The notes under the pieces are model-generated. The model made no database searches, was not told where the DNA came from, and saw only the letters and a list, made by a program, of their open reading frames with translations. A stretch of DNA of 14,819 nt from assembly GCA_964438395.1 (NCBI GenBank), contig CAYTLC010000047.1:1-14819 (forward strand), read 5' to 3'. A program made the position numbers and the translations under genes. Shown here in pieces: positions 1-14,356 of this stretch (position 1 is its first letter; every line of letters begins with the position of its first letter). This DNA comes from an uncultured Candidatus Scalindua sp. (lineage in GTDB: Bacteria > Planctomycetota > Brocadiia > Brocadiales > Scalinduaceae).

Positions 1-1101
1 ATTCTTCCCTGTGCCCATGCAGCCGAATCAACTACAGTGACGGTGGACGGTGTTGGCACATTAATAGGGAATGACAAGGCACGTGCGAGGGATGAGGCAC
101 TCAGAGACGCTTACCGGATGGCACTTGAAAAGGCCGGGGTTAACATGAGCACATATACAGAGATGGTGGACCTTGTCGTAATAAAGGATGTCGTACGCGC
201 AGAAGTATCTGGTCATGTGACGTCCTGGGAGATAGAAGATGAAGGTGTGCGGGGTGACGGTCTCTACTACGTGACCATAACGGCAAAAGTTGTAAAAGCT
301 CCTATTAAGAAAGATGATAAAGAGGCGTTGAGGTTGATTATAAACATGATGGGTAACCCCAGGTTTATCGTATTGATAGACGAGGCGAATAATGGAGAGA
401 AACCACCGTTTTCCACTCTTGAAGCTACGCTGACGGAGACATTGACTGATTATGGATACCACAGCATTGACCCGATACAGCAAAAAATAATTGAAGAGAC
501 AGAAGATGCCAGAAGGGCAATAGGGGGAGATACTAAAGCGGCACAGAAGCTTGCTATGAGAATGCAGGCTGACGTGATAATTACCGGCAAGGTATATACA
601 GAAAAGCTGCCAAAGAATGAGTACTTTAAAGAGACTAACTGGGTATCGAGCAAGGCATACAGTACTGTCCGGGCAGTAATCGCAGAGACGGGTAAGGTAC
701 TGGATGTTGCCAGCCCGGAGAAACCGGGCGCTGGATTGACCTTCAATGATGCAGGGACTAAGGCAATCAAACAGTGCGGACAGAGCCTGGCAGACGATCT
801 TATATGGAACATTCCTCAGCATATAGATGTTTATGACGGAAAAACCATTCAATTGCTGGTAAACGGGATCGAATACTCCGACTACTCTAAGTTGACCGGT
901 GAATTAAGAAACATGAGAAAGGTGACATATGTATTCCCAAGAGGATGGGAAAAAGATCAACCTGCTGTCTACGATGTAAAGACTATGGGTAATGCAGAAG
1001 CTCTGGCAGCAAGGCTTGAAGCTTTCGGTATGGAGATAGTAAGATTCAGTATGAATAAGATAGAGGTGAAAAAGGCTAAAAAGGGTTGGTTTAGTTGGTG
1101 A
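1..1101 (+). CDS. Secreted FlgT-like / LPP20-domain envelope protein; 5' end lies outside the window
   Basis: Frame 1 is open from base 1. The first residues (ILPCAHA|AESTT) look like the tail of a Sec signal peptide with an AxA cleavage site, so the GTG at 37 in the ORF track is probably internal. Stop TGA at 1099-1101. The N-terminal segment (DKARARDEALRDAYRMALEKAGV...DVVRAEVSGHVTSWEI...YYVTITAKV) fits the LPP20/FlgT-N pattern and is clearly paralogous to the N-domain of ORF 2965-3762. The middle segment (RFIVLIDE...ADVIITGKVY...VRAVIAETGKVL) resembles a CsgG/FlgO-type alpha/beta domain. The antisense ORFs inside it are shadows. Confidence 0.75.
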   Translation: MLPCAHAAESTTVTVDGVGTLIGNDKARARDEALRDAYRMALEKAGVNMSTYTEMVDLVVIKDVVRAEVSGHVTSWEIEDEGVRGDGLYYVTITAKVVKAPIKKDDKEALRLIINMMGNPRFIVLIDEANNGEKPPFSTLEATLTETLTDYGYHSIDPIQQKIIEETEDARRAIGGDTKAAQKLAMRMQADVIITGKVYTEKLPKNEYFKETNWVSSKAYSTVRAVIAETGKVLDVASPEKPGAGLTFNDAGTKAIKQCGQSLADDLIWNIPQHIDVYDGKTIQLLVNGIEYSDYSKLTGELRNMRKVTYVFPRGWEKDQPAVYDVKTMGNAEALAARLEAFGMEIVRFSMNKIEVKKAKKGWFSW

Positions 1102-1227
1102 TAGGGAAAGACAAAAGTCTGGATTCACAATCCCAGAATTTCTAAATCCTTAAATCAGTAAAAAATTTGAGTAAATTTGTTGAGTTAGTGTCGTCTTTTT
1201 TATCTTCATTAATCTGTGCCCCGGAAT

Positions 1228-2772
1228 ATGCATATGAAAAGATTATTTGCCCTGACACTGTTATTAGTCATTCTTTGTTCGATGTTCGGTTGTGTTACTG
1301 TGAATATCGTTAAGGATACACACACGGTACCACCACCTCCTCAACAGAAGCAGACGGTTCCTATGTATATGGAAAAGGAATATTCTGCCCCTCAGAAGGT
1401 TGATGCCTCCGAATTTGAGAAAGATATGAAGAGAGGCCGCGATCTTCTGAGCCGAAAACAGTACGGGGAGTCTATCGACTGTTTTAAAGCAATTGCGATA
1501 AGACATCCCAGAGAGACAAAGGTTCAGTACTATATTGCACTTGCCTATGACGAGAGTGGTGATAAGAGAGAGGCTTTACGGGGGTACAAGAGTTTCGTCG
1601 ATATTCAGACAGGTAATGAGGTACTGGTACGGAAGTCCAGGAGCAGGATACGTGTGCTCAAGGACACTATTGCGGAGGAGCTTATCAAGGCGGCAACTGT
1701 ACTTGTAGAGGACCATGAGTATGGAGGTTCTTTTAAGAGGCTTGAAGAGGCGTATGACCTGCGACCATCTCCTGCCACATCAAAGAAAATTGTAGAGCTG
1801 TATGACAGGTATTCAATAAACTCTATAGCCTGGCAGATGTCATCCTTCGGTGATTTGTTATCTGAGAACTCTGTATCTATCGTGCCTTTTACTGATCTGG
1901 CAGGAGAAGGGACCAGGGAGGGGAGTGCCGTTGCGATGGAGCTTAAGAATGAGCTTGTTAATATGGAGGAGTTAGATGTCTATGTTCGCGATGATGCTTC
2001 TCTCAAAGCTATATTGAATGAGGTAGAGTTTGGTGATTCCGGCGCCATTGATGAAAAGACAAGAATAGAGCTGGGCAAACTGGTAAGCACCGGGGCAGTT
2101 ATTACGGGCAGGATCGGTTATGTTGCAGATACATTTAAGATCAATGGATGGATGATAAATGTAGAGACCGGTAAGATAATTACATCCAGGAGCGTCAGTG
2201 TCCTCGGTTGGAATATTGCAGATACGGATAAGTACGCCGATTTCAATATCAAGGTATGGATGGACAGGAAGGAGTACATTATCGGAGATTCGGTGGAGAT
2301 AAATGTACAGACCAACAAGGATTGTTTTGTTACCCTGCTGAACGTTCGCAGTAACGGAGAGATATGGGAGCTGTTCCCCAATAGCTATAATAAGAACAAT
2401 TTCGTAAGGGCAAACACGAGGCACACTATTCCGTCTGGTAATGACAATTTTCGACTGGCCATAGTAGCACCTTCCGGCCAGGATTACATAAAGGCGATAG
2501 CCACCTCAGTACCTATAACCAGAGAGCAGATATCACAGGTACTCTCTGAAGAGAACTCTATCCTGGTATCCCCGGCAGACATCGTCAGGCAGAGAGGAGA
2601 ATCTGCCTTCAGGTCTGTCTCGCCATCAGAGATGAGGGGTCTTCATGAAATCCTGACAAGAGGAGTAGGAGTATTTCCCGATCCGAAAGGCAATCTCAGT
2701 TACAACAATTCCGACTCCGATACCAGGTTTGAGTACGCAGTGAGCACATGGTCGTTTGTGACTAAGAGATGA
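1228..2772 (+). CDS. Probable lipoprotein: TPR-like region + CsgG/FlgO/TolB-N-like periplasmic domain + DUF4384-like C-terminal domain
   Basis: The ORF opens at GTG 1216, with in-frame ATGs at 1228 and 1234. MKRLFALTLLLVILCSMFG|C is a signal peptide with a lipobox-like Cys. TPR-like helices: RGRDLLSRKQYGESIDCFKAIAIRHP...YYIALAYDESGDKREALRGYKSF. CsgG/FlgO-like core: VSIVPFTDLAGEG..GSAVAMELKNELVN...LKAILNEVEFGDSGAIDEKTRIELGKLVSTGAVITGRIGYV...INGWMINVETGKIITSRSV. DUF4384-like: IKVWMDRKEYIIGDSVEINVQTNKDCFVTLLNVRSNGEIWELFPN...HTIP...FRLAIVAPSGQDYIKAIATSVPI. Exact start is uncertain (1216, 1228 or 1234). Confidence 0.8.
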   Translation: MHMKRLFALTLLLVILCSMFGCVTVNIVKDTHTVPPPPQQKQTVPMYMEKEYSAPQKVDASEFEKDMKRGRDLLSRKQYGESIDCFKAIAIRHPRETKVQYYIALAYDESGDKREALRGYKSFVDIQTGNEVLVRKSRSRIRVLKDTIAEELIKAATVLVEDHEYGGSFKRLEEAYDLRPSPATSKKIVELYDRYSINSIAWQMSSFGDLLSENSVSIVPFTDLAGEGTREGSAVAMELKNELVNMEELDVYVRDDASLKAILNEVEFGDSGAIDEKTRIELGKLVSTGAVITGRIGYVADTFKINGWMINVETGKIITSRSVSVLGWNIADTDKYADFNIKVWMDRKEYIIGDSVEINVQTNKDCFVTLLNVRSNGEIWELFPNSYNKNNFVRANTRHTIPSGNDNFRLAIVAPSGQDYIKAIATSVPITREQISQVLSEENSILVSPADIVRQRGESAFRSVSPSEMRGLHEILTRGVGVFPDPKGNLSYNNSDSDTRFEYAVSTWSFVTKR

Positions 2773-2865
2773 TTGAATGCAATTTATTATTGGATCTATC
2801 TGCTTTTCTCTGCGTGAGAACTTTTCTTGCACCAGATCCACTTCCCACAACGATTAATAGGTAAA

Positions 2866-2897
2866 GCACTTAAGTTATTTGGATTAAGTGCGCTTTT
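2866..2897 (+). terminator. Candidate rho-independent terminator after the lipoprotein gene
   Basis: Perfect 8-bp stem GCACTTAA (2866-2873) / TTAAGTGC (2884-2891) with a 10-nt loop, followed by GCTTTTA. It lies 94 nt after the stop at 2772. Confidence 0.5.
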
Positions 2898-2964
2898 ACA
2901 ATAAGTTTCAGATTTTCAAACTCTAAACCCAATTATATTTATTTAAGAAGAAAGGGGTTGTGAT

Positions 2965-3762
2965 ATGTATCTACGGAGACTTAAACTTCTAGTGGTAGTT
3001 ATGCTGTTTGCAGGAATGGCGTTTACCGGTCAAGCCACGCTTAAGGCTGGTGAAAAGGTGTCCAGCGGAAAGGCAAATATTAATATTGGTGGAGGAGAGA
3101 GGGGTACCATTAACTGGGGTACAGAATTTATCACAGCGAAGGGTATTGTTCCGATAACACAGAATGAAGCGCTTGCAAGAAGAGGTGCTATAGTTGATGC
3201 CAACAGGAGATTACTGGAGATAATCAAGGGTGTTCGTATAGATGCCAAGACTGTTATATCCGACCTTATGGAAGTAAATGATGTCGTAAAGCAGGAGGTG
3301 AGCGGAGTGATTACCCATGCTGAGATAGTGAGTGAAAGCCAGAAGAACGGGAATTACATCATAAATATGCGGGTACCTGTGGGGAAATTCATCTCACTCA
3401 TTGTGAAAGACACACAGGTTTCCATACCGGACTTTCCGGCACCCACTAAATATACTGGACTGCTTATAGATGCCAGGGGGCACAATCTGGAGCCTGCAAT
3501 ATTTGTCAGTATATATAATGACAAGGACGGAACAAAGATATGCGGACCGATCCATCCAATATACCGCGTAAGTGTGAAGGGTCTTAGTAGTATCAATGAA
3601 GATCGTCTTGGTGACAATCCACTCAGGATCAAGATTAAGGGAACAACCGGTCCGAGCAATGTTGACATTACATTAAGTAATGGAAGCTCTAAAAAGGTGA
3701 GGAAGAAGATAATGAATACCGGGATATTCTCAAAGAGTAAGGTCATTATCATAATTGACTAG
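2965..3762 (+). CDS. Secreted LPP20/FlgP-like domain protein
   Basis: ATG at 2965 is preceded by AAAGGGG 7 nt upstream. Sec signal peptide MYLRRLKLLVVVMLFAGMAFTGQA|T. LPP20-type N-domain: ITAKGIVPITQNEALARRGAIVDANRRLLEIIKGVRIDAKT...DVVKQEVSGVITHAEI...YIINMRVPV. C-terminal half contains YTGLLIDARGHNLEPAIFVSIYNDKDG..ICG. Paralogous to the N-domain of the first gene. Confidence 0.8.
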   Translation: MYLRRLKLLVVVMLFAGMAFTGQATLKAGEKVSSGKANINIGGGERGTINWGTEFITAKGIVPITQNEALARRGAIVDANRRLLEIIKGVRIDAKTVISDLMEVNDVVKQEVSGVITHAEIVSESQKNGNYIINMRVPVGKFISLIVKDTQVSIPDFPAPTKYTGLLIDARGHNLEPAIFVSIYNDKDGTKICGPIHPIYRVSVKGLSSINEDRLGDNPLRIKIKGTTGPSNVDITLSNGSSKKVRKKIMNTGIFSKSKVIIIID

Positions 3763-3853
3763 ATAACAACCAACCACAGTCGGTTCAATAATCGGAAGAA
3801 GCGTAATGGGGCTGTTGTGGTTAAATGGGGGAGGGGTAAACTAAAAGTAGTAT

Positions 3854-3906
3854 AAAAAAAGGCACAGAGAAATATATTGTTCTTATATATTTCCTGTGCC
3901 TTTTGA
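3854..3906. terminator. Bidirectional rho-independent terminator between convergent genes
   Basis: A7 tract (3854-3860), then the hairpin GGCACAGAGAAATATAT (3861-3877) / ATATATTTCCTGTGCC (3885-3900) with 16 bp, one bulged A and a 7-nt loop, then TTTT (3901-3904). The A-run and T-run flank the stem so it can terminate in both directions. It sits between the stop at 3762 (+) and the stop at 3918 (-). Confidence 0.8.
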
Positions 3907-3917
3907 GTTTAAATGAA

Positions 3918-5381
3918 TTAAACAGCTATGCCCTTGTCTGTCGGTACAGTAACAGCACTGCTCTTGTACCAATCCTTGTAATAGTCGCCTGAATCGTATA
4001 GTAGACGAAGATTTTCCAGCACCTGCTCAAACACTTGTATCCAGTCAGAGCCAACCCTGAACCCAAACATTGCATTACGTTTACCGTGAGTTGTGCTGCC
4101 GATAGTCTGAAGTGATTTTCTAAATCTTAGTCTTATATTGTCACCGGCGTACAGATGGTCATACATATATTGCATGCCTTCAATGAACTCCTCAAGGTTC
4201 ATATCTATGAGTCTATGAACTACATGTGCAGTATCATAATATTTCCAGTCTTCAGGATAGTTCTTTCTGAAAATCCTCTTTTCAGAGTCAAGCCTGTCGT
4301 AAAGCGCAGTCTTAGGAAACGGGCAGTTGATTCCAAAGGTAAGAACATCAATATTGTTTTGCAGTACAAAATCTGTCATCCTTTTGAATGAATCTTTGTC
4401 ATCTCCATCTGCTCCAAGAACTATTGATCCCCAGACAACCAGGCCATGATCGTGAATTTTCTGAACGCTGTCATAATACTTATCAGCACCAATCCTTAAG
4501 TTAGTCGTTTTATTCATCTTTTCCAGAACCGCTTCATTTGTTGATTCTATGCCGCAGAGAAATCCAAAATTTCCACTCTTTGCCATAAGATCAAGCACCT
4601 CTGCATCCTTTGATATATTGAGTGCAGTAAATCCAAGCCAGTCCTTTTTGATGCCCCTGTCTATCATGCCGCGAAAGAGGTCTTTTGCCCTGTTAGCAGA
4701 GTTCTTACTATGTCCATAGAAGTTATCTTCTGCAAACATGAGTCCCTGATAATCAGTTGATTCCATTTCGTCCAGAACATCTTCAAACGGTCTTTCTCTA
4801 TATTTCTTTCCCTGAAAGGTCGGTACGCTGCAGAAATCGCAGTAATTTGGACAACCTTTAGTTGTAACAATTGATGAAAACTTATAATCATATTTCTTCT
4901 TCAGGAGTTCTCTATCCGGAAATACATGTTTCATCTCTGACAGGCCTGGCAGCCCGCCTTCGTACTTCTTTTTGAGTTCGCCTTTTTCAAAATCTTTAAC
5001 GACTTGTGGCCACAATGTTTCGGCCTCTCCGATAAAAATTGCATCCACATGTTGTGAGGCTTCTTCCGGTACTACTGAAGCGTGTATGCCACCCATTACT
5101 ACGGTCATGCCTTTTTCTCTGCAGACCTTAGCTATCTGGTAAGCTCTTGGCACTTGATATGTAACAGAAGTGATACAAACCATATCCACAGGTTCAAATG
5201 TAATATCTCCTTTATCATCCAGAGCCAGTTCAAGATTTTCATCGATTACGTCAAACTCCCAGTCACCAGGTGTAAGGGCTGCTATGTATGCAAGATTTAA
5301 AGGCATTTGAACTATGACAGTTATGCTCTCCTCGCCATGTCTCCCGGGGGGATGTGGATTGATCAGCATCATTTTTCTCAT
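3918..5381 (-). CDS. Cobalamin (B12)-binding-domain radical SAM enzyme
   Basis: 487 aa. The N-terminal B12-binding-type Rossmann segment (MVCITSVTYQVPRAYQIAKVCREKGMTVVMGGIHASVVPEE) is followed by the radical SAM cluster motif TTKGCPNYCDFCS (CxxxCxxC). Strong SD AGGAGGA (5389-5395) sits 7 nt before ATG 5381 and overlaps the upstream gene's stop codon. Confidence 0.9.
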   Translation of the reverse strand: MRKMMLINPHPPGRHGEESITVIVQMPLNLAYIAALTPGDWEFDVIDENLELALDDKGDITFEPVDMVCITSVTYQVPRAYQIAKVCREKGMTVVMGGIHASVVPEEASQHVDAIFIGEAETLWPQVVKDFEKGELKKKYEGGLPGLSEMKHVFPDRELLKKKYDYKFSSIVTTKGCPNYCDFCSVPTFQGKKYRERPFEDVLDEMESTDYQGLMFAEDNFYGHSKNSANRAKDLFRGMIDRGIKKDWLGFTALNISKDAEVLDLMAKSGNFGFLCGIESTNEAVLEKMNKTTNLRIGADKYYDSVQKIHDHGLVVWGSIVLGADGDDKDSFKRMTDFVLQNNIDVLTFGINCPFPKTALYDRLDSEKRIFRKNYPEDWKYYDTAHVVHRLIDMNLEEFIEGMQYMYDHLYAGDNIRLRFRKSLQTIGSTTHGKRNAMFGFRVGSDWIQVFEQVLENLRLLYDSGDYYKDWYKSSAVTVPTDKGIAV

Positions 5382-5393
5382 TTTTTTATCCTC

Positions 5394-6827
5394 CTAATTA
5401 TTTAAAATCATATTGGCCACCCTCCAACCAGAGGATACTACAGCACATATCCCCGGCCCCGGATTAGTCCAGTGCCCGGCCAGAAAAAGATTTTTGAAGG
5501 GTGTTGTGTGTGAAAGTCTATTTGACCACGTCTGGTCTACAGTAACGGCCCAGCCATAGGCTGCGCCTTTTGAGTTGAGTGTGTAACGATATAACGTCTT
5601 CGGTGTGGCAGCGTCAATTACCTCTATATGGTCCTGGATTTCCGGTACAAAATTTTCCAGATAATTTATTGTATGTTTTTTCATTTTATCTTTATATGCA
5701 ACCCAATCGTCTATGTCGTCATAATTATCTCTTGACGAGACAACAACAGAAATTATTTGTTTGTTATCAGGTGCCAGGCTTGGATCAACTTCCGTAGGAA
5801 CGGAAATATAAAACCAGTCGTTACCTGAAAAACTTAAGTCATTTGATGTATGGTAAAAACCTCTTTTAAGGTCTTTTAAGTCTATTTTGTTATCAAGGCC
5901 AAGGTATAGTAAAAAGAAAGAAACACTTTCCTTCATATTCTCAATCTTGCGAAGATAAGAGTCGTCAACGCTGTTTTTGTCTAATAAAGAGAAAAATGTT
6001 TGTTTTGGATCTATGTTTGAGACAAAGATATCAGCCGAAATTTCCCCTCCTTTTTTAGTTGTAACTCCTTTTATAATATTACTATCCGTAAGCAATCCCT
6101 CAACGCTAGAAGATAGCATAATGTGACCGCCATAGTCAATAAATTTTTGGGTTATCGCATCAGCGAAATTCTGGGTACCACCGACAGGGAAATAAGCTCC
6201 ATCTTTTAGATAATTTACCAACATTTGACACATACCAATAGCTGAAACCTCATGAGGAGGGGAACCAATGTATCCCCACTGTGCAGACAGAGTCATCTTG
6301 AGCTGCTCATCTGTAAAAAAATTGTCCAGCATTTCCTTGTAGGTAAGGTTCTGGTATTTGATGAGCATTTTATGCGCTTCAGTGCTGAATGTAGCCCTGT
6401 ATAATCGGGTGAATTCCTTAAAAAATAGTGATAGTTGTTCTCTTTCTGATGGAAACCGTTCCTTCAGCAGATCCACATAATCATCTATTTCGGCAGGTAC
6501 ATCAATGGAAAATGAGGGGAAATGTATGCTGTCCATCGGATCAAGCTGTAGAAAATTAATATTTATGTCAAGCTCTTTAAGGCACCTGCCAACTACACTC
6601 CATTTTCCACACCCACCAATATGATGAACTGCTGAATCGAAAATAAAACCTTTTCTCTTAAAAGAGGTACAATAACCACCGGGGATACTATGTTGTTCAA
6701 TAATCAGCACGCTCTTTCCCTGTTTTGCCAGGAAAGTCCCGCAGATTAGACCGGCAATTCCGGCACCCAGTACAATTGCATCATACTTGGATTTAATTTC
6801 AGATTTGTTCAGGGAGAAATTACTCAT
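5394..6827 (-). CDS. FAD-dependent oxidoreductase, phytoene desaturase (CrtI/CrtD)-like
   Basis: 477 aa. N-terminal dinucleotide-binding motif YDAIVLGAGIAGLICGTFLAKQGKSVLIIEQHSIPGG. C-terminal FAD-contact motif NLFLAGHWTNPGPGICAVVSSG, typical of the CrtI/amine-oxidase superfamily. Lies 19 nt downstream of the KS-like gene. Confidence 0.85.
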   Translation of the reverse strand: MSNFSLNKSEIKSKYDAIVLGAGIAGLICGTFLAKQGKSVLIIEQHSIPGGYCTSFKRKGFIFDSAVHHIGGCGKWSVVGRCLKELDININFLQLDPMDSIHFPSFSIDVPAEIDDYVDLLKERFPSEREQLSLFFKEFTRLYRATFSTEAHKMLIKYQNLTYKEMLDNFFTDEQLKMTLSAQWGYIGSPPHEVSAIGMCQMLVNYLKDGAYFPVGGTQNFADAITQKFIDYGGHIMLSSSVEGLLTDSNIIKGVTTKKGGEISADIFVSNIDPKQTFFSLLDKNSVDDSYLRKIENMKESVSFFLLYLGLDNKIDLKDLKRGFYHTSNDLSFSGNDWFYISVPTEVDPSLAPDNKQIISVVVSSRDNYDDIDDWVAYKDKMKKHTINYLENFVPEIQDHIEVIDAATPKTLYRYTLNSKGAAYGWAVTVDQTWSNRLSHTTPFKNLFLAGHWTNPGPGICAVVSSGWRVANMILNN

Positions 6828-6846: not shown

Positions 6847-8079
6847 TTATGAATATTTTGAGATGATTACGGAAGAGATGTTGCCTGTGTCGGAAAAGGA
6901 GTTGACCAGTACATTGTTTACTTCTGCCTCTCTGCTATCGTTAGGTACGCAATCCAGGTTACACTCTTCATCTTTTTCCTGATAGTTTATTGTCGGAGGG
7001 ATTATACCGTTATTGATTGATAATACACCGGCAACACATTGTAATGAACCTGATGCGTCAAGGCACTCTCCTGTCATAGACTTTATAGCACTTACAGGTA
7101 CTTTATCAGCGCTGTCACCAAAGTAGTCTCTAATGATTTTTGCTTCCATCATGTCACCTGTTACGCTGGAATTTGCACATGCGGATATATAAGAAACGTC
7201 TTCTTTGTTAATCCCGGCATCTTCCATTGCCATAGAGATACTCCTTACACCTTGAGTAGTGTTAATATCGTCACGTGAGGTTTTGTCCGGATTAAACGTA
7301 CATCCGTACCCTTTTATCTCGGCATAGATTTTCGCATTTCTCTCCAATGCGTCTTCAAGCCTTTCTATAACAAGTAACGCAGAAGCTTCACCAATTACAA
7401 AGCCGTTACGTCTTTTGTCAAATGGCGCGGAGATTTCAGCAGCATCACTGCTTCCTGACAATACTCCTGAACTGTAAGCACCCCAGAAAATATCACGGGT
7501 TAAACCATGAACTCCACCGGCTAATACAGCTTTTCCTCTACCTAGCTGTAGGAAATCAGAGGCGTAAATGATAGCGTCCAGTCCGCTGGCAGTTCCATTA
7601 GATATTGTAGAATTTAAACCTGTCGCATTGCAGAAAATAGATACTCTGCTTGCCGGTGCATTCAAGACAGTGTTCGGGAATGCCATGGGATTTACGAAAG
7701 TTGGTCCTTCCTGTAATCCTTCCAGGTCGAATGAGCTGATACTATCAATACTTCCATACGTTGACCCGATTACTATTCCAGTTTCTTCGGCACCATAAGT
7801 TTCGTGAGTGATATTAGCATCTTCCATGGCAAGCTTTGCAGAAGAAGATACCAATAGCGATGTTCTGTCAATGTGCCTGATGCCTTTTTTACCCAGGTAT
7901 TCCTTTGGATCAAAATCAGCAATCTCACCCGCTTTTTTGCTTTTGAATTTGGACACGTCAAAAAGGGTGATATCTTTTATTCCTGAGACACCATTCGTCA
8001 AATTGGTCCAGAACTCATCCTTGTTTACACCGATTGGCGATAAAACACTAATTCCTGTTATAACCAGGCGACTATCCAT
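6847..8079 (-). CDS. Ketosynthase-like protein lacking the catalytic Cys-His-His triad (chain-length-factor-like partner subunit)
   Basis: 410 aa with the full-length KAS-II fold (RLVITGISVLSPIGVNKDEFW...; ...PPTINY...CNLDCVPN). In a by-eye alignment to E. coli FabF, the active-site Cys is Thr163 (STISNGTASG; ACT at 7591-7593), the first His is Cys301 (YISACANSS; TGT at 7177-7179), the catalytic Lys is Met310 (GDMME) and the second His is Glu338 (KSMTGECL; GAG at 7066-7068). The ORF is intact with no frameshift. Confidence 0.85.
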   Translation of the reverse strand: MDSRLVITGISVLSPIGVNKDEFWTNLTNGVSGIKDITLFDVSKFKSKKAGEIADFDPKEYLGKKGIRHIDRTSLLVSSSAKLAMEDANITHETYGAEETGIVIGSTYGSIDSISSFDLEGLQEGPTFVNPMAFPNTVLNAPASRVSIFCNATGLNSTISNGTASGLDAIIYASDFLQLGRGKAVLAGGVHGLTRDIFWGAYSSGVLSGSSDAAEISAPFDKRRNGFVIGEASALLVIERLEDALERNAKIYAEIKGYGCTFNPDKTSRDDINTTQGVRSISMAMEDAGINKEDVSYISACANSSVTGDMMEAKIIRDYFGDSADKVPVSAIKSMTGECLDASGSLQCVAGVLSINNGIIPPTINYQEKDEECNLDCVPNDSREAEVNNVLVNSFSDTGNISSVIISKYS

Positions 8080-8128
8080 ATAATTTTAAACCTCTTATTA
8101 TGAAAATAATTTAATAACTGAAAAAATA

Positions 8129-8146
8129 TTAAACGTTTAACGTTAA
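8129..8146. promoter_or_regulatory. Two overlapping perfect palindromes (TTAAACGTTTAA / TTAACGTTAA) in the KS-to-KS-like spacer; candidate protein-binding site
   Basis: A 12-bp palindrome at 8129-8140 and a 10-bp palindrome at 8137-8146 share TTAA, with centres 7 bp apart. They lie within the 81-nt AT-rich gap between the two ketosynthase genes. Function unknown. Confidence 0.3.
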
Positions 8147-8160
8147 CTTGATTTTTGGTA

Positions 8161-9387
8161 TTAGCCGGTAAACCTTTTTAGTATGAGGCTGCTATTGTTA
8201 CCACCAAATGCATATGCGTTATTCATGGCAATATCAACCTGCATTTCACGCTTAACATTAGGTACAAAATCCAGATCGCACTCAGGATCCTTTGTTTCGT
8301 AATTTATAGTTGGAGGCACAACACTCTCTTTAATGGCTAAAGCGCATGCGATTGCCTCTATGGCGCTGGCAGCTCCCATTGTATGTCCAAGCATCGACTT
8401 TATGGAACTTATCGCCAGATTCTTTGCATGTTCTCCAAAGACCCTCTTAATAGATATTGTTTCCGCCTTGTCGTTAGCTACTGTTCCCGTACCATGAGCA
8501 CTCATATACTGAACATCTTCGGGCTTGATTTTTGCACTTTGCAACGCTTTTGTCATAGCCGAAGTAACACCATTTCCCTCCGGATGTGGAATTGTAATGT
8601 GATAACCGTCACAACTAAGTCCATAACCCAGGATCTCGGCATAAATATTTGCGCCTCTAGCCAGTGCACCTTCCATAGATTCTAATACCAGCATTCCGGC
8701 ACCTTCACCAACCAACAGGCCTTTTCTGTTCTTATCAAAAGGTTGGCAAATGTCAGGTGCAATAGCATTTAGCCTGCTAAAACCGACAAATGCTACTTTA
8801 GAAAACGGATCAGAGCCGCCGGCAAGCATTATGTCAGCTCTACCTAATTTTATCAGGTCACATGCATATCCAATAGCATAGTTTCCCGCTGCACATGCAG
8901 TAGGTATTATTGTGCTTGGCCCTTTAAGACCAAATTCAATAGATATGTTAGACGGCATATTGACGCAGGGATGCTGATGGAACAGACCGGGGTCTACGCT
9001 ATCCTCACCCTTCTCATGTCTGATATAGTTTACTTTTTCCAGAATCTGAATTTCACCTGCAGTTGTTCCAATTGAAACACCTGTTCTTTCAGGGTCAGTA
9101 TTGTTCAGGTCAACATTAGAGTCATCGATAGCGAGTTTTGCAGCAGCTATGGCAAATTGTGAACCTTTGCCAATCTCTCGATTTGAACCATTTTTTGTGT
9201 AATCTCCATAATTGAAATCTTTGACTGTACAGCCTCTGTGAACTTTAAAAGGAGAGGTGTCAAATGATGTGATCTCAGATACACCGGATGTGCCTGAGAT
9301 TAATGCATCCCAAAACAGATCTTTTGTGTTTCCAATAGGGGAGATTACACCTAAACCGGTAATTACAATTCTTTTATCTTTATCCAT
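8161..9387 (-). CDS. fabF: Beta-ketoacyl-ACP synthase, KAS II (FabF) family, catalytically complete
   Basis: 408 aa. N-terminus [24 protein letters not shown]. Active-site Cys165 ([14 protein letters not shown]), His298 (YMSAHGTGT), Lys306 (NDKAE), His335 ([11 protein letters not shown]). C-terminus [13 protein letters not shown]. Starts 29 nt after the fabZ stop. Confidence 0.9.
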
Positions 9388-9416
9388 GGTTGATTATTTT
9401 TAAAGTACTAATGCTT

Positions 9417-9866
9417 TTATCCTGTTAATGAATCTTTGTCCGCAACACCAAAGCTCAACGTCGCTTTTGTTACAACTTTGTCTCCCACTTTTGCCACTCC
9501 CTTAACTATTGCCGCACTGGAAATGACCTTTTCAATATCTACTTCCAGAATAAGCTGGTCACCGGGAAATACGGGTTTTGAAAAACGTACGTTTGCGGAA
9601 GCCAACAAGAAGACTTTATCTTTATTCTGCTCGGTATCAAAGCTCTTTTTGAAGAGGATAATCGAGGCTTGCGCCAGAGCTTCTACAATGAGAACCCCAG
9701 GCATTATGGCAAAATCAGGGAAGTGTCCAACGAAGAAAGACTCATTGCCGGAGATGTTTTTCAGGCAAACAATTCTGCTCTCTTTTTGAAGTTCAGTAAC
9801 TTTATCAATAAATAAGAAAGGGTATTTTTGAGGAACCAACTCTCTTACTTCCTCAAAGTTCAACAT
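9417..9866 (-). CDS. fabZ: 3-hydroxyacyl-ACP dehydratase FabZ
   Basis: 149 aa hot-dog fold protein. LVPQKYPFLFIDKV; catalytic His in FFVGHFPDFAIMPGVLIVEALAQ, with the catalytic Glu in VEALAQ; PVFPGDQLILEV. Collinear with E. coli FabZ. Confidence 0.92.
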   Translation of the reverse strand: MLNFEEVRELVPQKYPFLFIDKVTELQKESRIVCLKNISGNESFFVGHFPDFAIMPGVLIVEALAQASIILFKKSFDTEQNKDKVFLLASANVRFSKPVFPGDQLILEVDIEKVISSAAIVKGVAKVGDKVVTKATLSFGVADKDSLTG

Positions 9867-9973
9867 ATAAAATAACCTTTCGTTCTATCGTATATAGTAG
9901 CCACCGCCCATCCACCTTTATCGTTTGTGGATAGGCAAATAGATGATTAAGAAAGCGTAACAAGCTTTATCTA

Positions 9974-10225
9974 TTATCCTTCAAGTGTAGACCTGGTCAT
10001 CTCAATAGTTGCATTCAATGATGTAATGTCTACAAGTTTTTCTTCCGGAATTTGAACCTTAAACTTCTTTTCTATAAGGGCAAGAATTTCCAATGCCAAT
10101 AAGGAATCAATTTCCAGATCCTTAAAAAAATCAGCATCCCTTTTTTCCCATATTTCAGTCTCATCCAGCTCGGTTACTTCAGCAACAATAGCAGTGATAT
10201 CTTTCTCTAAGTTCTCTGCAGACAA
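9974..10225 (-). CDS. acpP: Acyl carrier protein (cluster-dedicated ACP)
   Basis: 83 aa acidic protein with the phosphopantetheine attachment motif DLEIDSLLALEIL (DSL). It uses a TTG start at 10225-10223. GGAGG (10233-10237) lies 7 nt upstream and an in-frame TAG at 10238-10240 blocks any longer ORF. Confidence 0.88.
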   Translation of the reverse strand: MSAENLEKDITAIVAEVTELDETEIWEKRDADFFKDLEIDSLLALEILALIEKKFKVQIPEEKLVDITSLNATIEMTRSTLEG

Positions 10226-10668
10226 TATCTTACCTCCCTAATAAACAACCAGAAATCTAACTATGAACCCAAAACACCAATCAAAAAGCTATTTAAACGG
10301 GTATTTATGAAGTTACATTCTGTAAAAATTATTGATCTAAAAGTATTGATAGTATTTGATTACGATAAAATGAAAATTATCGAAAAGGGAAAAATAACAA
10401 ACTTATATCAATATGTCAATAACAATCTTAGGACAATTTACATTGTTGACAGGTATAGACGATTACTGTTAGGAATAGTATATATTCAATCCAAACTGAT
10501 GGCATTTGAAACCGGTCCGAAAAACGTTGTTAATGAGTGTTTTCCTGGTGTATGTGCAGTAGAGAAGAACGGCGGAATGAAGTCGCGTAGGACTGACAAA
10601 AGTGTATAAGTCTCTAAGGTCACAGGACTTTCTATTATAATTGGTACTAGTTTTTTATTTAAATATAC

Positions 10669-10697
10669 TTGACAACAATACTTAGTATGGATAAACT
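10669..10697 (+). promoter_or_regulatory. Candidate sigma-70-type promoter for parA
   Basis: TTGACA (10669-10674), a 17-nt spacer, then TAAACT (10692-10697), about 55 nt upstream of ATG 10751. Pattern match only. Promoter rules in this lineage are not established. Confidence 0.35.
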
Positions 10698-10750
10698 TTT
10701 CACTATTATCCTGATATTTTCTATAAAAGCACAAATCAATGAGGAGCAAA

Positions 10751-11518
10751 ATGCGTAGTATTGCGTTCATAAATCAAAAAGGTGGGGTGGGGAAAACAAC
10801 TTCGACCGCAAATGTTGGAGCATGCCTGGCTGCACATGGCAAAAAGGTGCTTATCATAGACCTCGATCCTCAAGCCAACCTGAGTATTCATTTCGGTATT
10901 AATGTCCAGGGAAAAGATTCATCTATTTATGAGATTATGTGCGGTAAGAAGACTGTTAAAGATGTACTAATAAAGACTTCTATTGCTAATCTGGATATTA
11001 TCCCTTCCGACATTGACCTTGCAAGTGCAGAGGTAGAACTCGTTAACACGGTAGGGCGTGAAACAATCGTTAAGTTCTATCTTGAAGGGATGTTAGAAGA
11101 ATATGATTATGTTTTAATTGACTGTCCACCGTCTTTAGGTCTTCTCACTCTGAATGCACTTACTATTGCCAACGAAATTTTTATTCCTCTTCAGACTGAG
11201 TTCTTTGCTCTGCAGGGCGTAAGTAAGCTGATACAAACTTTTGATGTTATCAAGAAACGGCTGAACAGCAAGTTAGAGATCACAGGAATAATACCTTGTA
11301 TGCATGATAGCAGGACAAAGCTGGGGCAGGCAGTGCTTGATAAGATCAAAGAATATTTTTCAGATAAGGTATTTAAAACGACCATTAGAAAAAATATTAA
11401 GCTTTCAGAATCAACAAGTCATGGTGTGCCGGTTACAGTATACGCTCCGGATTCTAATGGCGCTCAAGATTACGAGACGTTAACCAAAGAGATAATGTCC
11501 ATGAAGAAAAAGAAATAG
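10751..11518 (+). CDS. parA: ParA/Soj-family partition ATPase
   Basis: Deviant Walker A with signature Lys (INQKGGVGKTTSTAN), A' motif VLIIDLDPQAN, Walker B YVLIDCPPSLG. The Soj-like C-terminus is APDSNGAQDYETLTKEI. The ORF opens at ATG 10739, but GAGGAG (10741-10746) 4 nt before ATG 10751 favours the second ATG (MRSIAFINQKGG...). Confidence 0.9.
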   Translation: MRSIAFINQKGGVGKTTSTANVGACLAAHGKKVLIIDLDPQANLSIHFGINVQGKDSSIYEIMCGKKTVKDVLIKTSIANLDIIPSDIDLASAEVELVNTVGRETIVKFYLEGMLEEYDYVLIDCPPSLGLLTLNALTIANEIFIPLQTEFFALQGVSKLIQTFDVIKKRLNSKLEITGIIPCMHDSRTKLGQAVLDKIKEYFSDKVFKTTIRKNIKLSESTSHGVPVTVYAPDSNGAQDYETLTKEIMSMKKKK

Positions 11519-11653
11519 CATCCCTGATGGGCGATGCATATATCCAGAGAGCGTGCTTCCCTGTAATACAATTTCAAACCGTAGATTAAACCAACAGTAT
11601 CTGTTTGTAGATTATAGAATTTTGGTGATATTTGTTGCTAAAAGGAAAGATTT

Positions 11654-12301
11654 GTGGCAAAAAAAAATGTACTTGGGTCGGATCCATTTGAGTGGTTAAA
11701 GAAGGATGATAAAGAAGAGGGCACTGAAGATAAGAAGAGCGATATTGGTGCTCAGAAGAAACAGGAAGAGAAACAAGCTGACCCGGTAGTAGCTAAAGAA
11801 GAGACAAGTGTTAAACAGGAAGTTAAACAAGAAGTAAAGCAGGAAGTAGAAAAGGAAGTAAAGAGTGAGGTAAAGAAAGAAGTAAAGAAAGAGGTAAAGA
11901 AGAAAGTAAAGCAGGAAGCGAAAGCATACGAACCTATAGATGTCTCCGCCACAACTAAACCACCGGTCAGCAAGGCTTACGATAAAATAATAGAACCATA
12001 TCTCCAGCAGGAAGAAGAAGCTTTTGAACCCAGTGACATATCAGAGGCAAATCGAAAAGCTGTTTTGGGTAAGGATGTCTATGCTCATCATGCCAAATCT
12101 CGTAAAGCAACACAAAAAGATAGCCCCGCAACTGCATTTGTAATTGTATACACAGTCTTATTGCTGATTCTCGGTTTCATAGTCTATAAAGATCTGACAA
12201 AACAGATTAATAAATTGGAGACGAAGTTGGACCGTGTAGAAAAGAAGCTTGATGAGGGTGTAATAGACTACGAGGATGCAAAACTAGATGGTGAGTGGTG
12301 A
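11654..12301 (+). CDS. Lys/Glu-rich repeat protein with a single TM helix and C-terminal coiled coil; possible ParA partner or adaptor
   Basis: GTG start at 11654 is the only start available: in-frame TAA at 11639-11641 and no Met codon anywhere in the 215 aa. AAGGAAAG lies upstream. The first ~165 aa are highly charged and include nine VK(Q/K)E tetrapeptide repeats. Hydrophobic helix ATAFVIVYTVLLLILGFIVY, then heptad-like KDLTKQINKLETKLDRVEKKLDEG. The protein ends ...KLDGEW. No family recognised. Confidence 0.7.
   Translation: MAKKNVLGSDPFEWLKKDDKEEGTEDKKSDIGAQKKQEEKQADPVVAKEETSVKQEVKQEVKQEVEKEVKSEVKKEVKKEVKKKVKQEAKAYEPIDVSATTKPPVSKAYDKIIEPYLQQEEEAFEPSDISEANRKAVLGKDVYAHHAKSRKATQKDSPATAFVIVYTVLLLILGFIVYKDLTKQINKLETKLDRVEKKLDEGVIDYEDAKLDGEW
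11810..11917 (+). repeat. 9 x 12-bp in-frame tandem repeat (GTWAARSARGAR-like) encoding (V-K/E-x-E)n
   Basis: Units in order: gttaaacaggaa, gttaaacaagaa, gtaaagcaggaa, gtagaaaaggaa, gtaaagagtgag, gtaaagaaagaa, gtaaagaaagag, gtaaagaagaaa, gtaaagcaggaa. They are contiguous from 11810 to 11917. Confidence 0.9.
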
Positions 12302-13092
12302 TTCATAATAGTATGTTCAACCTTAAACTTTTTTTCACGTCCATTATCCAATAATAGTTTCAACTCTCCGATATTAGAAATTCCCAGAAAAATTCCTGTA
12401 TACTCTTTATTGGCATTACGAACGTTGACCCTTCTTCCTATGTTCACACAGAACTCCTGCCACTTCTCCACAATATATTCGTAGCGTTCATCCTTTAATA
12501 TTAAGTACCACGAATCCAGATTTTGCAGCAGTGCCTTTGCAAAATTGGTGCGATCTATAAATGTCTCTTTTTCAATAGCAAGAGATGTTGCCGGTTGACC
12601 AATATGTTCAGGAAATTCATGCTTCTTTGAATTGACATTTATTCCAATTCCTACAATATAGTCTCTTAACTGTTCTGTATGGTCCTGTGTCTCTACAATT
12701 ATTCCACCCAATTTCTTGTTATTAATTACAAGGTCATTAGGCCAGTCGATATCAACAGGTAATTGGAACATGTCCCTTATGGTTTGTACGATAGCTACTG
12801 CAGTAATAACCATCAGAAGATACGAATTCTCCGGTTGGATTACAGGCCTTAAGACAACAGTCAGTAACAGGCCTTTTCCGCTCTTGCAATACCACTCTTT
12901 CCCTGACCGTCCTCTTCCCTGGGTCTGCTCTTCAACAAAGATAGTGGTTCCCTCAATAGCACCCTCTTTGAGCATCTTCTTTGCAATGTCCATTGTAGAT
13001 TCGGTACGTTCAAGCGTAACTATCTCCCTGCCTATAATATCTGTACGCAGGTTATCTTTAATCTTGTCAGCAGATAAGCGAACGTGTTTCAT
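12268..13092 (-). CDS. birA: Biotin--[acetyl-CoA-carboxylase] ligase, class I (no N-terminal HTH)
   Basis: 274 aa. Biotin-binding loop EEQTQGRGRSGKEWYCKSGKGLLLTVVLRP (GRGRxGxxW), then KWPNDL-like WPNDLVINNKKLGGIIVE and GIGINVN. The N-terminus goes straight into the catalytic domain. The last 34 nt overlap the convergent gene ending at 12301. Confidence 0.88.
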   Translation of the reverse strand: MKHVRLSADKIKDNLRTDIIGREIVTLERTESTMDIAKKMLKEGAIEGTTIFVEEQTQGRGRSGKEWYCKSGKGLLLTVVLRPVIQPENSYLLMVITAVAIVQTIRDMFQLPVDIDWPNDLVINNKKLGGIIVETQDHTEQLRDYIVGIGINVNSKKHEFPEHIGQPATSLAIEKETFIDRTNFAKALLQNLDSWYLILKDERYEYIVEKWQEFCVNIGRRVNVRNANKEYTGIFLGISNIGELKLLLDNGREKKFKVEHTIMNHHSPSSFASS

Positions 13093-13150
13093 CTGTTTTC
13101 TGGGAAGAATTTAATTGAGAATCTGAAGATTTTGCTTTGACGGCAGATAC

Positions 13151-14176
13151 TCATTTATGAGGTTCAATGATCACTTTTACAGACTCTTTGGCCTCGGTAA
13201 CCAGCTTAAAGCCCTTTACAGCTTCTGACAGGCCTAAACGATGAGTAATCATCTCCTGCACAGGAACACGCTGAGAACTGATCAACTCAATTGCCACCTC
13301 TATGTCAAGAGGGCTGGCGCCGTACGTTGGCACTAAGGTAACACAGTTTTTCCAGAACTCATTAAACGGTACGTTAAGAGTAGTCTCCGGGCCGCCCGGT
13401 GCAAAGTAAAGGATAGTACCTGCACGGTCTACAGATTTCATAGCGGTATCTAAAGCGGAGTCTGCTCCGGCTGTTAATATCACACGATCAGCAAGCCTGT
13501 TGTTGTTCACTTTGAGTAGATGTGAAGGCAGGTCGTCATGGGCAGAGATGACAGAATCCGCTCCAAACTTCTTTGCCATCTCCATACGAAATTCACTAAT
13601 ATCAGTAGCAATTATCTTTCCGGCTCCCAGTGATTTAGCGAGTAAAATGTGAAGAAGTCCTGACATTCCACTGCCGATAACAACGACAGTCTGGCCCGGT
13701 TCAATACGAGCTACTCTCTGTCCACGGACCACACAAGCCAGTGGTTCAATAAACGTTCCATCTTCCAGTGACATATTATCAGGAAGAATAGAGATTCCTC
13801 TGTCTACATTAATTTCCGGTACACGTATATACTCAGCAAAACCGCCGGGATCAAAGTTTGTAGTACGCAAGGAGTCGCATACAGTGTGGTGGCCATTCAA
13901 ACAGTAATGACACGTATTACAGGGAACGTGGTGCGATACAAAGACCCTGTCTCCCTTTTTGAATCGTTTAACATCCTCTCCTGTTTCAACAATCTCACCG
14001 GTTGCTTCGTGTCCAAGTACAAGTGGTGCTTTGTGAATACGATACCATTCCATTACGTCACTGCCGCAGATACCACAGGCCATTGATTTAAACAGTACCT
14101 CGCCTTTACCAATCTTCGGAGTTGGCATCTCTTCCACTCTAATGTCACTGTTATTGTAATACATTGCTACGCGCAT
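13151..14176 (-). CDS. Zinc-dependent medium-chain dehydrogenase/reductase (sorbitol/threonine dehydrogenase-like)
   Basis: Catalytic Zn ligands CGICGSD and LGHEATGEIV. Structural Zn motif CNTCHYCLNGHHTVC. NAD-binding VVVIGSGMSGL. The family-typical N-terminus MRVAMYYNNSDIRVEEMPTPKIGKGEVL begins at ATG 14176. The ORF-track start at 14281 adds 35 atypical residues and is probably not used. Confidence 0.88.
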   Translation of the reverse strand: MRVAMYYNNSDIRVEEMPTPKIGKGEVLFKSMACGICGSDVMEWYRIHKAPLVLGHEATGEIVETGEDVKRFKKGDRVFVSHHVPCNTCHYCLNGHHTVCDSLRTTNFDPGGFAEYIRVPEINVDRGISILPDNMSLEDGTFIEPLACVVRGQRVARIEPGQTVVVIGSGMSGLLHILLAKSLGAGKIIATDISEFRMEMAKKFGADSVISAHDDLPSHLLKVNNNRLADRVILTAGADSALDTAMKSVDRAGTILYFAPGGPETTLNVPFNEFWKNCVTLVPTYGASPLDIEVAIELISSQRVPVQEMITHRLGLSEAVKGFKLVTEAKESVKVIIEPHK

Positions 14177-14356
14177 ATTGATATCCCGGATATTTAGTAA
14201 GAAAGTTAAAGTCTGGTGCTTATATGGCTGGTCAAGTGTGCCTTTTCCTGCCACTCGTATAACAGCTTGATATAACGTCACACCTTATACCAGAATGGCA
14301 AAAAGCTTTCAACTGTTTTCTGTCAGTTCAGATGGAGTTGGCGATAGTGTGAAAAT

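Follow-up and report, generated by a model that had tools for sequence, protein, structure and literature searches.

A six-gene operon of the Cluster I type

The window (the whole 14,819-nucleotide stretch of DNA analyzed) contains a six-gene minus-strand operon of 6.3 kb in the order ACP-FabZ-KS-CLF-PDH-rSAM (Table 1). The last two genes encode a CrtI-like flavoprotein of 477 amino acids (PDH) and a radical SAM enzyme of 487 amino acids with a B12-binding domain (rSAM). [quoted passage not shown] A preliminary description of this DNA had named a CrtI-like desaturase and a B12-radical SAM enzyme behind an ACP/KS/DH module, and both the Pfam annotations and the operon layout agree with it.

Table 1. 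Features of the operon and its flanks, with positions in the window
Feature	Position	Strand	Remarks
Intrinsic terminator	3850..3904	-	20-bp hairpin then U-run; 14 nt past the rSAM stop; closes the operon
rSAM, radical SAM enzyme with B12-binding domain, Kuste3608 orthologue	3918..5381	-	CxxxCxxC at C177/C181/C184
Shine-Dalgarno AGGAGGA of the rSAM gene	5389..5395	-	Overlaps the PDH TAG stop (5394-5396)
PDH, CrtI-family FAD oxidoreductase, Kuste3607 orthologue	5394..6827	-	GxGxxG at G21/G23/G26
amxFabFmut, CLF-like KS homologue	6847..8079	-	Cys->Thr, His->Cys, His->Glu
amxFabF2, active ketosynthase	8161..9387	-	Cys/His/His triad intact
amxFabZ, 3-hydroxyacyl-ACP dehydratase	9417..9866	-	Ile69 versus canonical Gly; 'AQASI' motif
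amxACP, anammox-specific acyl carrier protein	9974..10225	-	PP-binding domain; TTG start behind GGGAGG
Best sigma-70-like promoter candidate	10391..10419	-	TTGACA-17-TATTTT with TG; upstream of the ACP gene; consensus match only
Two 20-nt direct repeats	10393-10412 and 10418-10437		Over the promoter candidate

Promoter-like matches in this region are as frequent as expected from shuffled sequence, so the promoter is assigned only tentatively. The terminator was missed by an automatic scan and spotted by reading the sequence; folding then confirmed a hairpin with a dG of -24.2 kcal/mol (z = -9.1) that was equaled in stability by 0 of 200 shuffles. An Rfam scan of the whole window returned no riboswitch or other RNA family at the gathering threshold. 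Since the window also contains no hydrazine synthase gene, assignment to an anammox host relies entirely on protein identity: FabZ and ACP strongly match Scalindua brodae proteins, and PDH shares 86-93% identity with named Scalindua proteins, the upper value being to a Ca. Scalindua sp. protein. ACP matches amxACP in PDB 7qv0_D (E 1e-43), and FabZ matches the crystallized S. brodae amxFabZ (8ayi/7qv0; E 7e-86), whose Ile69 was described by Dietl 2023 (PMC10139942). The active-site Cys of CLF is replaced by Thr in the window and by Val in most other genera, and the Thr variant has been reported as Scalindua-specific (bioRxiv 10.64898/2026.05.19.726425). The literature gives C6-C8 as the preference of both amxFabZ and the KS/CLF pair.

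The one-strand gene order (amxACP-amxFabZ-FabF2-FabFmut-PDH-B12 radical SAM), the isoleucine in FabZ, and the loss of the Cys-His-His triad in FabFmut identify the operon as "Cluster I" (kuste3603-3608), which the literature treats as the foremost candidate for making ladderanes. Kuenenia (L084) and loci L001 and L002 show the same order. The six genes of Kuenenia stuttgartiensis are syntenic with those of the window, with identities of 77% (rSAM), 59% (PDH), 74% (KS), 63% (CLF), 64% (FabZ), and 80% (ACP), and the window rSAM falls within the anammox clade of an NJ tree. PDH and rSAM are thus almost certainly the Scalindua orthologues of Kuste3607 and Kuste3608. In anammox bacteria, Cluster I is present throughout and strongly expressed (PMC10139942), and expression of kuste3603-3608 in Escherichia coli yielded neither ladderanes nor polyunsaturated fatty acids (PMC10139942, PMC4790861).

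The preliminary description proposed that the pair desaturates an ACP-bound chain and then performs radical C-C chemistry on it, without recognizing the locus as ladderane Cluster I. The proposal is reasonable, but it has been in print for this exact cluster since 2009 (Rattray 2009, PMC2649909; Javidpour 2016, PMC4790861; Dietl 2023, PMC10139942; reviewed in PMC13459092). Both the gene pair and the tailoring hypothesis were therefore already known, and their rediscovery in Scalindua adds nothing new in itself. Anammox genomes also carry, at a separate locus, a module of the kuste2802-2805 type (L003, L004), which encodes an ACP synthase, a B12-radical SAM enzyme, FabF, and a non-canonical FabB, functions that match the table of Javidpour et al. 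(PMC4790861). Its radical SAM enzyme is a paralogue (50-52% identity) encoded beside a KS/CLF-like pair, and the module lacks PDH, ACP, and FabZ.

Distribution of the cassette

Loci from other genomes were read by exact-protein contig look-ups. A scan of a genome collection with the rSAM alignment gave four in-family loci among the 80 matches listed, the rest being at most 37% identical, so it is unusable as a phyletic census. PDH and rSAM genes were adjacent for every examined PDH orthologue of at least 40% identity (the window, L001, L002, L084, L081, L085, L087, L088, L089, and a contig from JGI 3300056388), and in about 18 further PDH/rSAM match pairs the longest contigs of the two proteins are equal in length, an indirect sign that the genes lie together. 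Co-occurrence of the two genes across genomes, on which the earlier tailoring proposal was staked, therefore holds for these orthologues but is not obligate, as each gene also occurs alone with KS/CLF: rSAM-KS-CLF modules without PDH are found at L003, L004, L083, and L086, and a PDH-KR-ACP-DH-KS-CLF module without rSAM at L090.

Complete ACP-DH-KS-CLF-PDH-rSAM cassettes are also present in high-GC contigs named Acidobacteria and non-anammox Planctomycetota. All six proteins of these cassettes are 33-59% identical to those of the window, and they share the bulky FabZ residue 69 and a CLF without the catalytic triad. A FabG-type KR is always added and an enoyl reductase never. In three of six contigs (L085, L087, and L089), the cassette is followed immediately downstream by a second rSAM-KS-CLF(-KR) module, which resembles kuste2803-2805. 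Identity does not clearly assign the second radical SAM enzymes to the kuste2803 paralogue (that of L087 is a recent duplicate of the first, at 74%), and only the best matches of the second KS and CLF point to the anammox b-type module. Literature searches turned up no earlier account of a complete Cluster I cassette in non-anammox bacteria, and one paper describes the cluster as exclusive to ladderane producers. The searches yielded only a looser deltaproteobacterial synteny (Rattray 2009, PMC2649909) and antiSMASH "ladderane" calls of a generic kind across many phyla.

This distribution bears on what the cassette makes. Its product could be a non-ladderane compound that anammox bacteria share with some non-anammox bacteria, for instance a conjugated or cyclized short acyl unit or a different specialized lipid; the ladderane rings would then be made elsewhere, or only after further anammox-specific steps. 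Neither Acidobacteria nor non-anammox Planctomycetota are known to make ladderanes, and the presence of whole syntenic cassettes in contigs bearing those names, complete with the supposedly anammox-specific FabZ and CLF traits, speaks against a ladderane role, as does a literature in which no experiment ties any Cluster I protein to ladderanes. We nevertheless consider such a product unlikely: the anammox proteins form a clade of their own, their cluster occurs throughout anammox bacteria with high expression (PMC10139942), and the non-anammox carriers are uncultured MAGs or contigs that could make related strained lipids. A tentative but plausible alternative is that Cluster I is not anammox-specific at all. 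Its PDH/rSAM chemistry would then be part of a wider ACP-tethered lipid pathway that gave rise to ladderane synthesis, with the two anammox clusters serving one pathway.

Family placement and junction of the putative tailoring genes

The window rSAM exceeds the Pfam cutoffs for an N-terminal B12-binding domain (PF02310, 38.8 bits versus 32.1) and for the radical SAM domain (PF04055, 55.2 versus 29.5). The C-terminal DUF4070 domain (PF13282), suggested as a check in the preliminary description, gave a borderline 21.2 bits over residues 358-437 against a cutoff of 22; several homologues have a precomputed PF13282 match, and the AF2 model of the window protein (pLDDT 92) places a helical domain at the C terminus and an alpha/beta domain at the N terminus. 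The CxxxCxxC motif, which ligates the [4Fe-4S] cluster, is invariant among 64 homologues, and there is no further conserved Cys, so an auxiliary cluster is not expected. None of the functionally defined families was reached at cutoff. TIGR04072 (rSAM_ladder_B12, a lipid biosynthesis B12-binding/radical SAM family), the most obvious candidate, gave 83 bits for the window protein, 87 for the Kuenenia orthologue, and no more than 83 for any paralogue tested (58-87 overall) against a cutoff of 360, and the BchE, HpnJ, HpnR, PhpK, and MgmA families gave 72-86 bits against cutoffs of 360-650. In a library clustered at 50%, the rSAM family occupied its own cluster (representative 666 bits, next 417, then 349 or less). 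At the sequence level, the family thus forms a discrete cluster outside every curated model.

Structural comparison places the rSAM model closest to AprD4, with further fold matches to MgmA, TsrM, TokK, CysS, and OxsB, at 13-20% identity. AprD4 has this fold but is not known to use cobalamin; the B12-binding domain by itself is therefore no proof of cobalamin use. Characterized B12-radical SAM enzymes are mostly methyltransferases, and methyl-branched fatty acids occur in anammox bacteria. The window rSAM could accordingly be a class-B cobalamin-dependent C-methyltransferase that adds methyl branches to an ACP-bound chain, with PDH preparing or reducing the site and no cyclization taking place. 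The above-cutoff B12-binding domain fits this role, and the nearest neighbors in sequence or structure include the methylases PhpK, HpnR, MgmA, TsrM, TokK, and CysS. However, no curated methylase family was matched, the scores being about 80-90 bits against cutoffs of 360-650, and the non-methylating OxsB, BchE, and AprD4 are about equally close; OxsB and BchE share the domain architecture and fold of the window rSAM, although the latter lies outside the curated families and its identity to any solved structure does not exceed the range given above. Methylation would also leave the dedicated short-chain KS/CLF, FabZ, and ACP without a role, and we regard it as quite unlikely.

The junction between the two genes had been read in the preliminary description as a sign of co-translation and stoichiometric production. 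Its coordinates and sequence are as described: positions 5389-5396 of the plus strand read tcctccta (T-AGGAGGA on the coding strand), the desaturase TAG lies inside the Shine-Dalgarno sequence, and the rSAM ATG (5381 to 5379) follows the PDH stop after exactly 12 nt (5382-5393). The 6.3-kb operon contains AGGAGGA a single time, 7 nt ahead of the ATG, and the sequence is thus a genuine ribosome-binding site rather than a chance match. The regulatory conclusion fared less well. An obligatory translational coupling that yields a 1:1 PDH-rSAM complex would fit the stop within the Shine-Dalgarno sequence, the identical junction at L001, the 4-nt overlaps at L087, L088, and L089, and the 2-4 nt gaps at L081 and in Kuenenia, which has a 4-nt gap and a Shine-Dalgarno sequence inside the coding end of PDH. 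Short intergenic gaps are, however, the norm in operons, and the orthologous junctions vary from 4-nt overlaps to a 35-nt gap at L085 and a 92-nt gap with a hairpin at L002. The rSAM gene carries the only strong Shine-Dalgarno sequence of the operon, with none visible at PDH, which favors independent and possibly higher initiation of rSAM. As PDH and rSAM are also found apart in related modules, obligatory coupling is decidedly improbable, and stoichiometric production is at best weakly indicated.

PDH contains the Pfam domains Amino_oxidase and NAD_binding_8. Its AF2 model (pLDDT 91) is nearest in fold to the carotenoid desaturase 4rep (TM 0.84), it matches CrtI 4dgk with an E value of 4e-24, and its best family matches are CrtI, CrtISO, and CrtD, with which it shares an FAD-binding Rossmann domain and an amine-oxidase fold. 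We can practically dismiss a genuine carotenoid desaturase or isomerase serving a pathway encoded elsewhere, which those matches and that fold would suit, because PDH scores below the CrtI phytoene desaturase model (TIGR02734, crtI_fam; 165 bits versus a cutoff of 238), Kuste3607 produced no lycopene and showed no phytoene desaturase activity when it replaced crtI (Javidpour 2016, PMC4790861), and PDH, unlike the carotenoid enzymes, has a place within ACP-dependent KS/CLF operons that is conserved across phyla rather than incidental. A possible parallel, a CrtI-like isomerase accompanying type II PKSs in cinnamoyl-lipid systems, was set aside; the paper concerned puts that isomerase in the HCCA isomerase/GST-kappa family.

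A proposed role in ladderane biosynthesis

Ladderane biosynthesis has long defied explanation, with no enzyme known to form the concatenated cyclobutanes. The PDH/rSAM pair is the main suspect of the field, and recognizing it therefore matters for annotation. We favor a role for the PDH/rSAM cluster in making ladderane or its precursor, with a probability of roughly 0.55.

The cassette resembles the KS/CLF polyene systems (ishigamide Iga11/Iga12, aryl polyene, and flexirubin), which combine ACP, KS/CLF, and DH, with or without KR, and likewise lack an enoyl reductase. The addition of a KR but never an enoyl reductase in the non-anammox cassettes fits this polyene-type logic, and their KRs score strongly, yet under the cutoff, against the flexirubin FlxB model. 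None of these polyene systems is known to include a flavoprotein of the CrtI type or a radical SAM enzyme of the B12 type. The KS/CLF polyene analogy has been drawn previously (bioRxiv 10.64898/2026.05.19.726425). In the likeliest mechanism, amxFabZ, the KS/CLF heterodimer, and a FabG encoded in trans would build an enoyl or polyenoyl chain of approximately C6-C8 on amxACP. The module itself has no enoyl reductase. The flavoprotein might then dehydrogenate or isomerize the chain beside an existing double bond. A 5'-deoxyadenosyl radical generated by rSAM, possibly together with cobalamin, could remove a hydrogen and close rings through new C-C bonds, perhaps iteratively with chain elongation. 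A reviewed precedent is Jaw5/C10P, an iterative PKS-coupled cyclopropanase of the radical SAM type that closes rings on a ketoacyl chain during its growth. Jaw5 is classed as HemN-like and not as a B12-domain enzyme. The present analysis and the literature establish what the genes are, their orthology, the operon structure, the radical SAM motif, the properties of KS/CLF and FabZ, and the failure of Kuste3607 to desaturate phytoene, whereas the ACP-bound substrate, the sequence of reactions, the cyclization, the use of cobalamin, and the connection to ladderanes are inferred. The specific desaturate-then-cyclize chemistry is rather doubtful.

The occurrence of the cassette outside anammox bacteria, if borne out, would call into question its published exclusivity to ladderane producers and may hint at genes that need to be co-expressed. 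The anammox radical SAM enzyme is hard to produce heterologously (PMC10139942), and for that reason the non-anammox cassettes would be useful as alternative, more tractable sources of enzymes for reconstitution.

Relationship of the operon to Cluster I

Strong matches link the window FabZ and ACP to the crystallised amxFabZ and amxACP of Scalindua brodae (8ayi and 7qv0; E values of 7e-86 and 1e-43, respectively). Proteins named Ca. Scalindua share 86-93% identity with the CrtI-like flavoprotein (PDH), Kuenenia and Brocadia proteins share 77-78% with the B12-domain radical SAM protein (rSAM), and the complete Kuenenia genome has the same six genes in the same order, with per-protein identities of 59-80%. 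The operon is the published Cluster I (kuste3603-3608). FabFmut, the chain-length-factor-like ketosynthase homologue (CLF), carries the Cys-to-Thr exchange reported as Scalindua-specific (bioRxiv 10.64898/2026.05.19.726425).

Much has already been proposed for this cluster. Rattray et al. 2009 (PMC2649909) suggested fatty acyl chains as the substrates that its phytoene-desaturase-like and radical SAM enzymes first desaturate and afterwards process, and a 2026 review (PMC13459092) lists the same three mechanistic schemes. Ladderanes were absent from E. coli expressing kuste3603-3608 (Javidpour et al. 2016, PMC4790861), and C6-C8 chains are preferred by amxFabZ and the FabF2/FabFmut heterodimer (Dietl et al. 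2023, PMC10139942; bioRxiv 10.64898/2026.05.19.726425); the latter two sources stress that the link between cluster and ladderanes is still without experiment. The preliminary description read the two genes as a coupled tailoring pair; its observation stands, while its interpretation is partly supported and, because the same scheme was already published for Cluster I, rediscovers a standing hypothesis. The PDH-rSAM feature is thus already known, and its distribution outside anammox bacteria is the only potentially new element.

Fourteen bases 3' of the rSAM stop lies an intrinsic terminator (a 20-bp hairpin and then a U-run, supported by folding; dG -24.2 kcal/mol, z -9.1), which delimits an operon of six genes with rSAM last. 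The convergent plus-strand genes probably share this terminator region. Within the 513-nt region 5' of the ACP gene, the best promoter-like site is weak and is overlapped by two direct repeats that could be an operator. No repressor domain was seen in the window's BirA-type ligase. BirA is tied to fatty-acid synthesis via acetyl-CoA carboxylase; the Kuenenia cluster differs in lacking this ligase/dehydrogenase neighborhood beside it.

Coordinates of features in the window and in comparison loci
Locus	Feature	Coordinates	Strand	Detail
Window	Three genes	37-3762	+	Matches: weak FlgT_N-like, DUF4384, TPR, weak CsgG-like; convergent with operon
Window	rSAM ORF	5381..3918	-	487 aa; ATG from 5381
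Window	Stop-to-ATG gap	5393->5382	-	12 bases
Window	AGGAGGA	5395->5389	-	
Window	PDH stop TAG	5396->5394	-	
Window	PDH ORF	6827..5394	-	477 aa
Window	KS homologue without Cys/His/His	8079..6847	-	
Window	Ketosynthase, triad intact	9387..8161	-	
Window	FabZ-type dehydratase	9866..9417	-	
Window	ACP	10225..9974	-	
Window	Two 20-nt direct repeats	10393-10437		AATAACAAnCTTAnnnCAAT; 25 nt apart
Window	ParA/Soj-type ATPase gene, then 215-aa Lys/Glu-rich ORF	10739-12301		ATPase gene divergent from operon; ORF with hydrophobic stretch in C-terminal part
Window	12-nt tandem repeat in 215-aa ORF	11813-11918		Encodes KQEV/KKEV units
Window	BirA-type biotin-protein ligase	12268-14281	-	Downstream of Zn-dependent threonine/sorbitol-dehydrogenase-like gene (range covers both)
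L002	PDH-to-rSAM junction	6917-7008		92 nt; hairpin
L085	Second rSAM-KS-CLF module	11481-15635		
L087	Second rSAM-KS-CLF module	11480-15838		
L089	Second rSAM-KS-CLF module	10849-15219		
L090	PDH-KR-ACP-DH-KS-CLF operon	8001-13256		

Coupling and separability of PDH and rSAM

Since the ORF list and the coding-strand junction sequence (...AAT-TAG-GAGGATAAAAAA-ATG) agree with the preliminary description, its coordinates and its account of the junction are exact. AGGAGGA, present as a single copy in the 6.3-kb operon and 7 nt 5' of the rSAM start codon, is a genuine ribosome-binding site. This Shine-Dalgarno sequence is the strongest of the operon, and an operon scan found none visible at the PDH and KS starts. 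The 12-nt junction recurs with identical sequence in locus L001, and spans 4 nt in Kuenenia (L084; GGAGG lies within the PDH 3' end), 2 nt in L081, 13 nt in the JGI 3300056388 contig and 35 nt in L085; the genes overlap by 4 nt in L087, L088 and L089. Unlike these tight junctions, the long gap in L002 (a MAG named 'Planctomycetes bacterium RIFCSPHIGHO2_12_FULL_52_36' that groups with anammox loci) contains an inverted repeat with many ACAGG/CCTGT units. The two genes stay adjacent across these loci, whereas their tight coupling is not conserved. Given this variation and the uneven Shine-Dalgarno sequences, the stoichiometric production proposed earlier is not implied by the sequence.

rSAM lies directly downstream of PDH in 10/10 loci, comprising every PDH orthologue examined at at least 40% identity, and ~18 further pairs of PDH and rSAM matches agree in the length of their longest contig, which is indirect evidence of co-occurrence. 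Each gene also occurs without the other. Paralogous rSAMs (50-60% identity) are found in rSAM-KS-CLF modules without PDH, both in anammox loci L003 and L004, where the arrangement ACP synthase-rSAM-KS-CLF matches kuste2802-2805, and in L083 and L086. Conversely, a more distant PDH heads the operon of L090 (Desulfobacterales MAG GCA_013375395.1), which lacks any radical SAM gene, so PDH does not need rSAM in order to partner a KS/CLF module. OYE-like and flavodoxin-like genes lie upstream of that operon. Because PDH and rSAM are separable among loci, both look like KS/CLF-module accessories rather than an obligate pair.

Family assignment of the two proteins

PDH has NAD_binding_8 and Amino_oxidase domains and a GxGxxG motif. 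Its best curated matches are crtI_fam (165 bits, cutoff 238), carotenoid isomerase and CrtD, and its closest solved relatives are CrtI (4dgk) and a carotenoid desaturase (4rep), on which its confident AF2 model (pLDDT 91) superposes with a TM of 0.84. The Kuenenia orthologue, Kuste3607, did not replace CrtI (Javidpour et al. 2016, PMC4790861).

rSAM combines B12-binding and Radical_SAM domains with a borderline DUF4070 match (21.2 bits, cutoff 22). Its CxxxCxxC motif (C177/C181/C184) is invariant across 64 homologues, whose alignment contains no further conserved cysteine; a single Fe-S cluster is therefore expected. The AF2 model (pLDDT 92) resembles AprD4, MgmA, TsrM, TokK, CysS and OxsB in fold, with sequence identities of just 13-20%, and its scores stay below every curated-family cutoff (~80 bits for PhpK, TIGR04072 'rSAM_ladder_B12', HpnJ, BchE and HpnR, which require 360-650). 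Clustering a library at 50% identity leaves a single representative for the entire family (666 bits; next 417, then <=349). By these sequence comparisons, rSAM belongs to a discrete family without assigned function; a class-B methyltransferase role for rSAM is a rival reading to C-C bond formation.

Cassettes beyond anammox bacteria and proposed chemistry

The complete cassette ACP-DH-KS-CLF-PDH-rSAM, ordered as in the window, occurs at six places beyond anammox bacteria, on high-GC MAG or unbinned contigs assigned by name to Acidobacteria or non-anammox Planctomycetota: Acidobacteria bacterium 13_1_40CM_2_60_7 (L081/L082, GC 60%), a Planctomycetota MAG (L087, 57%), a contig with the NCBI protein name 'Planctomycetota bacterium' (L088; another stretch, L083, has 72%), L085 (66%), L089 and the JGI 3300056388 contig. 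For L081, L085 and L087, identities to the window are 45-59% (ACP), 44-50% (DH), 53-56% (KS), 33-38% (CLF), 40-42% (PDH) and 55-58% (rSAM). Traits described as anammox-specific recur in these homologues: position 69 of FabZ is Ile or Leu, and the CLF lacks the triad. Dietl et al. 2023 (PMC10139942) describe the cluster as 'encountered exclusively' in ladderane producers, which, as far as cassette architecture is concerned, does not hold. Looser synteny in Deltaproteobacteria was noted by Rattray et al. 2009 (PMC2649909), and antiSMASH often makes 'ladderane' calls in other phyla; in the literature, we found no earlier report of complete Cluster I cassettes outside anammox bacteria.

All six cassette contigs encode a FabG-type ketoreductase (KR), directly after rSAM in three and closing an appended second module in three, and none encodes an enoyl reductase. 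A set of ACP, KS/CLF, KR and DH without an enoyl reductase follows the same logic as type II systems that form polyenes, and the 2026 preprint itself likens the KS/CLF pair to that of ishigamide (bioRxiv 10.64898/2026.05.19.726425). As the most likely reading, we infer that amxACP would carry a short enoyl or polyenoyl chain as it is built, that the flavoprotein would dehydrogenate or isomerise the bound chain, and that rSAM would then perform radical C-C bond formation, possibly once per elongation cycle. We regard this specific chemistry as doubtful. A rival reading is that the pair makes a non-ladderane product also formed by the non-anammox carriers; a role in the synthesis of ladderanes or their precursors is somewhat favored (probability of about 0.55).

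In L085, L087 and L089, the second rSAM-KS-CLF module directly follows the cassette and its CLF-like gene is degenerate. The KS and CLF of these modules best match anammox kuste2804/2805-type proteins, the module of L003 and L004, which hints that two separate anammox clusters act in one pathway.
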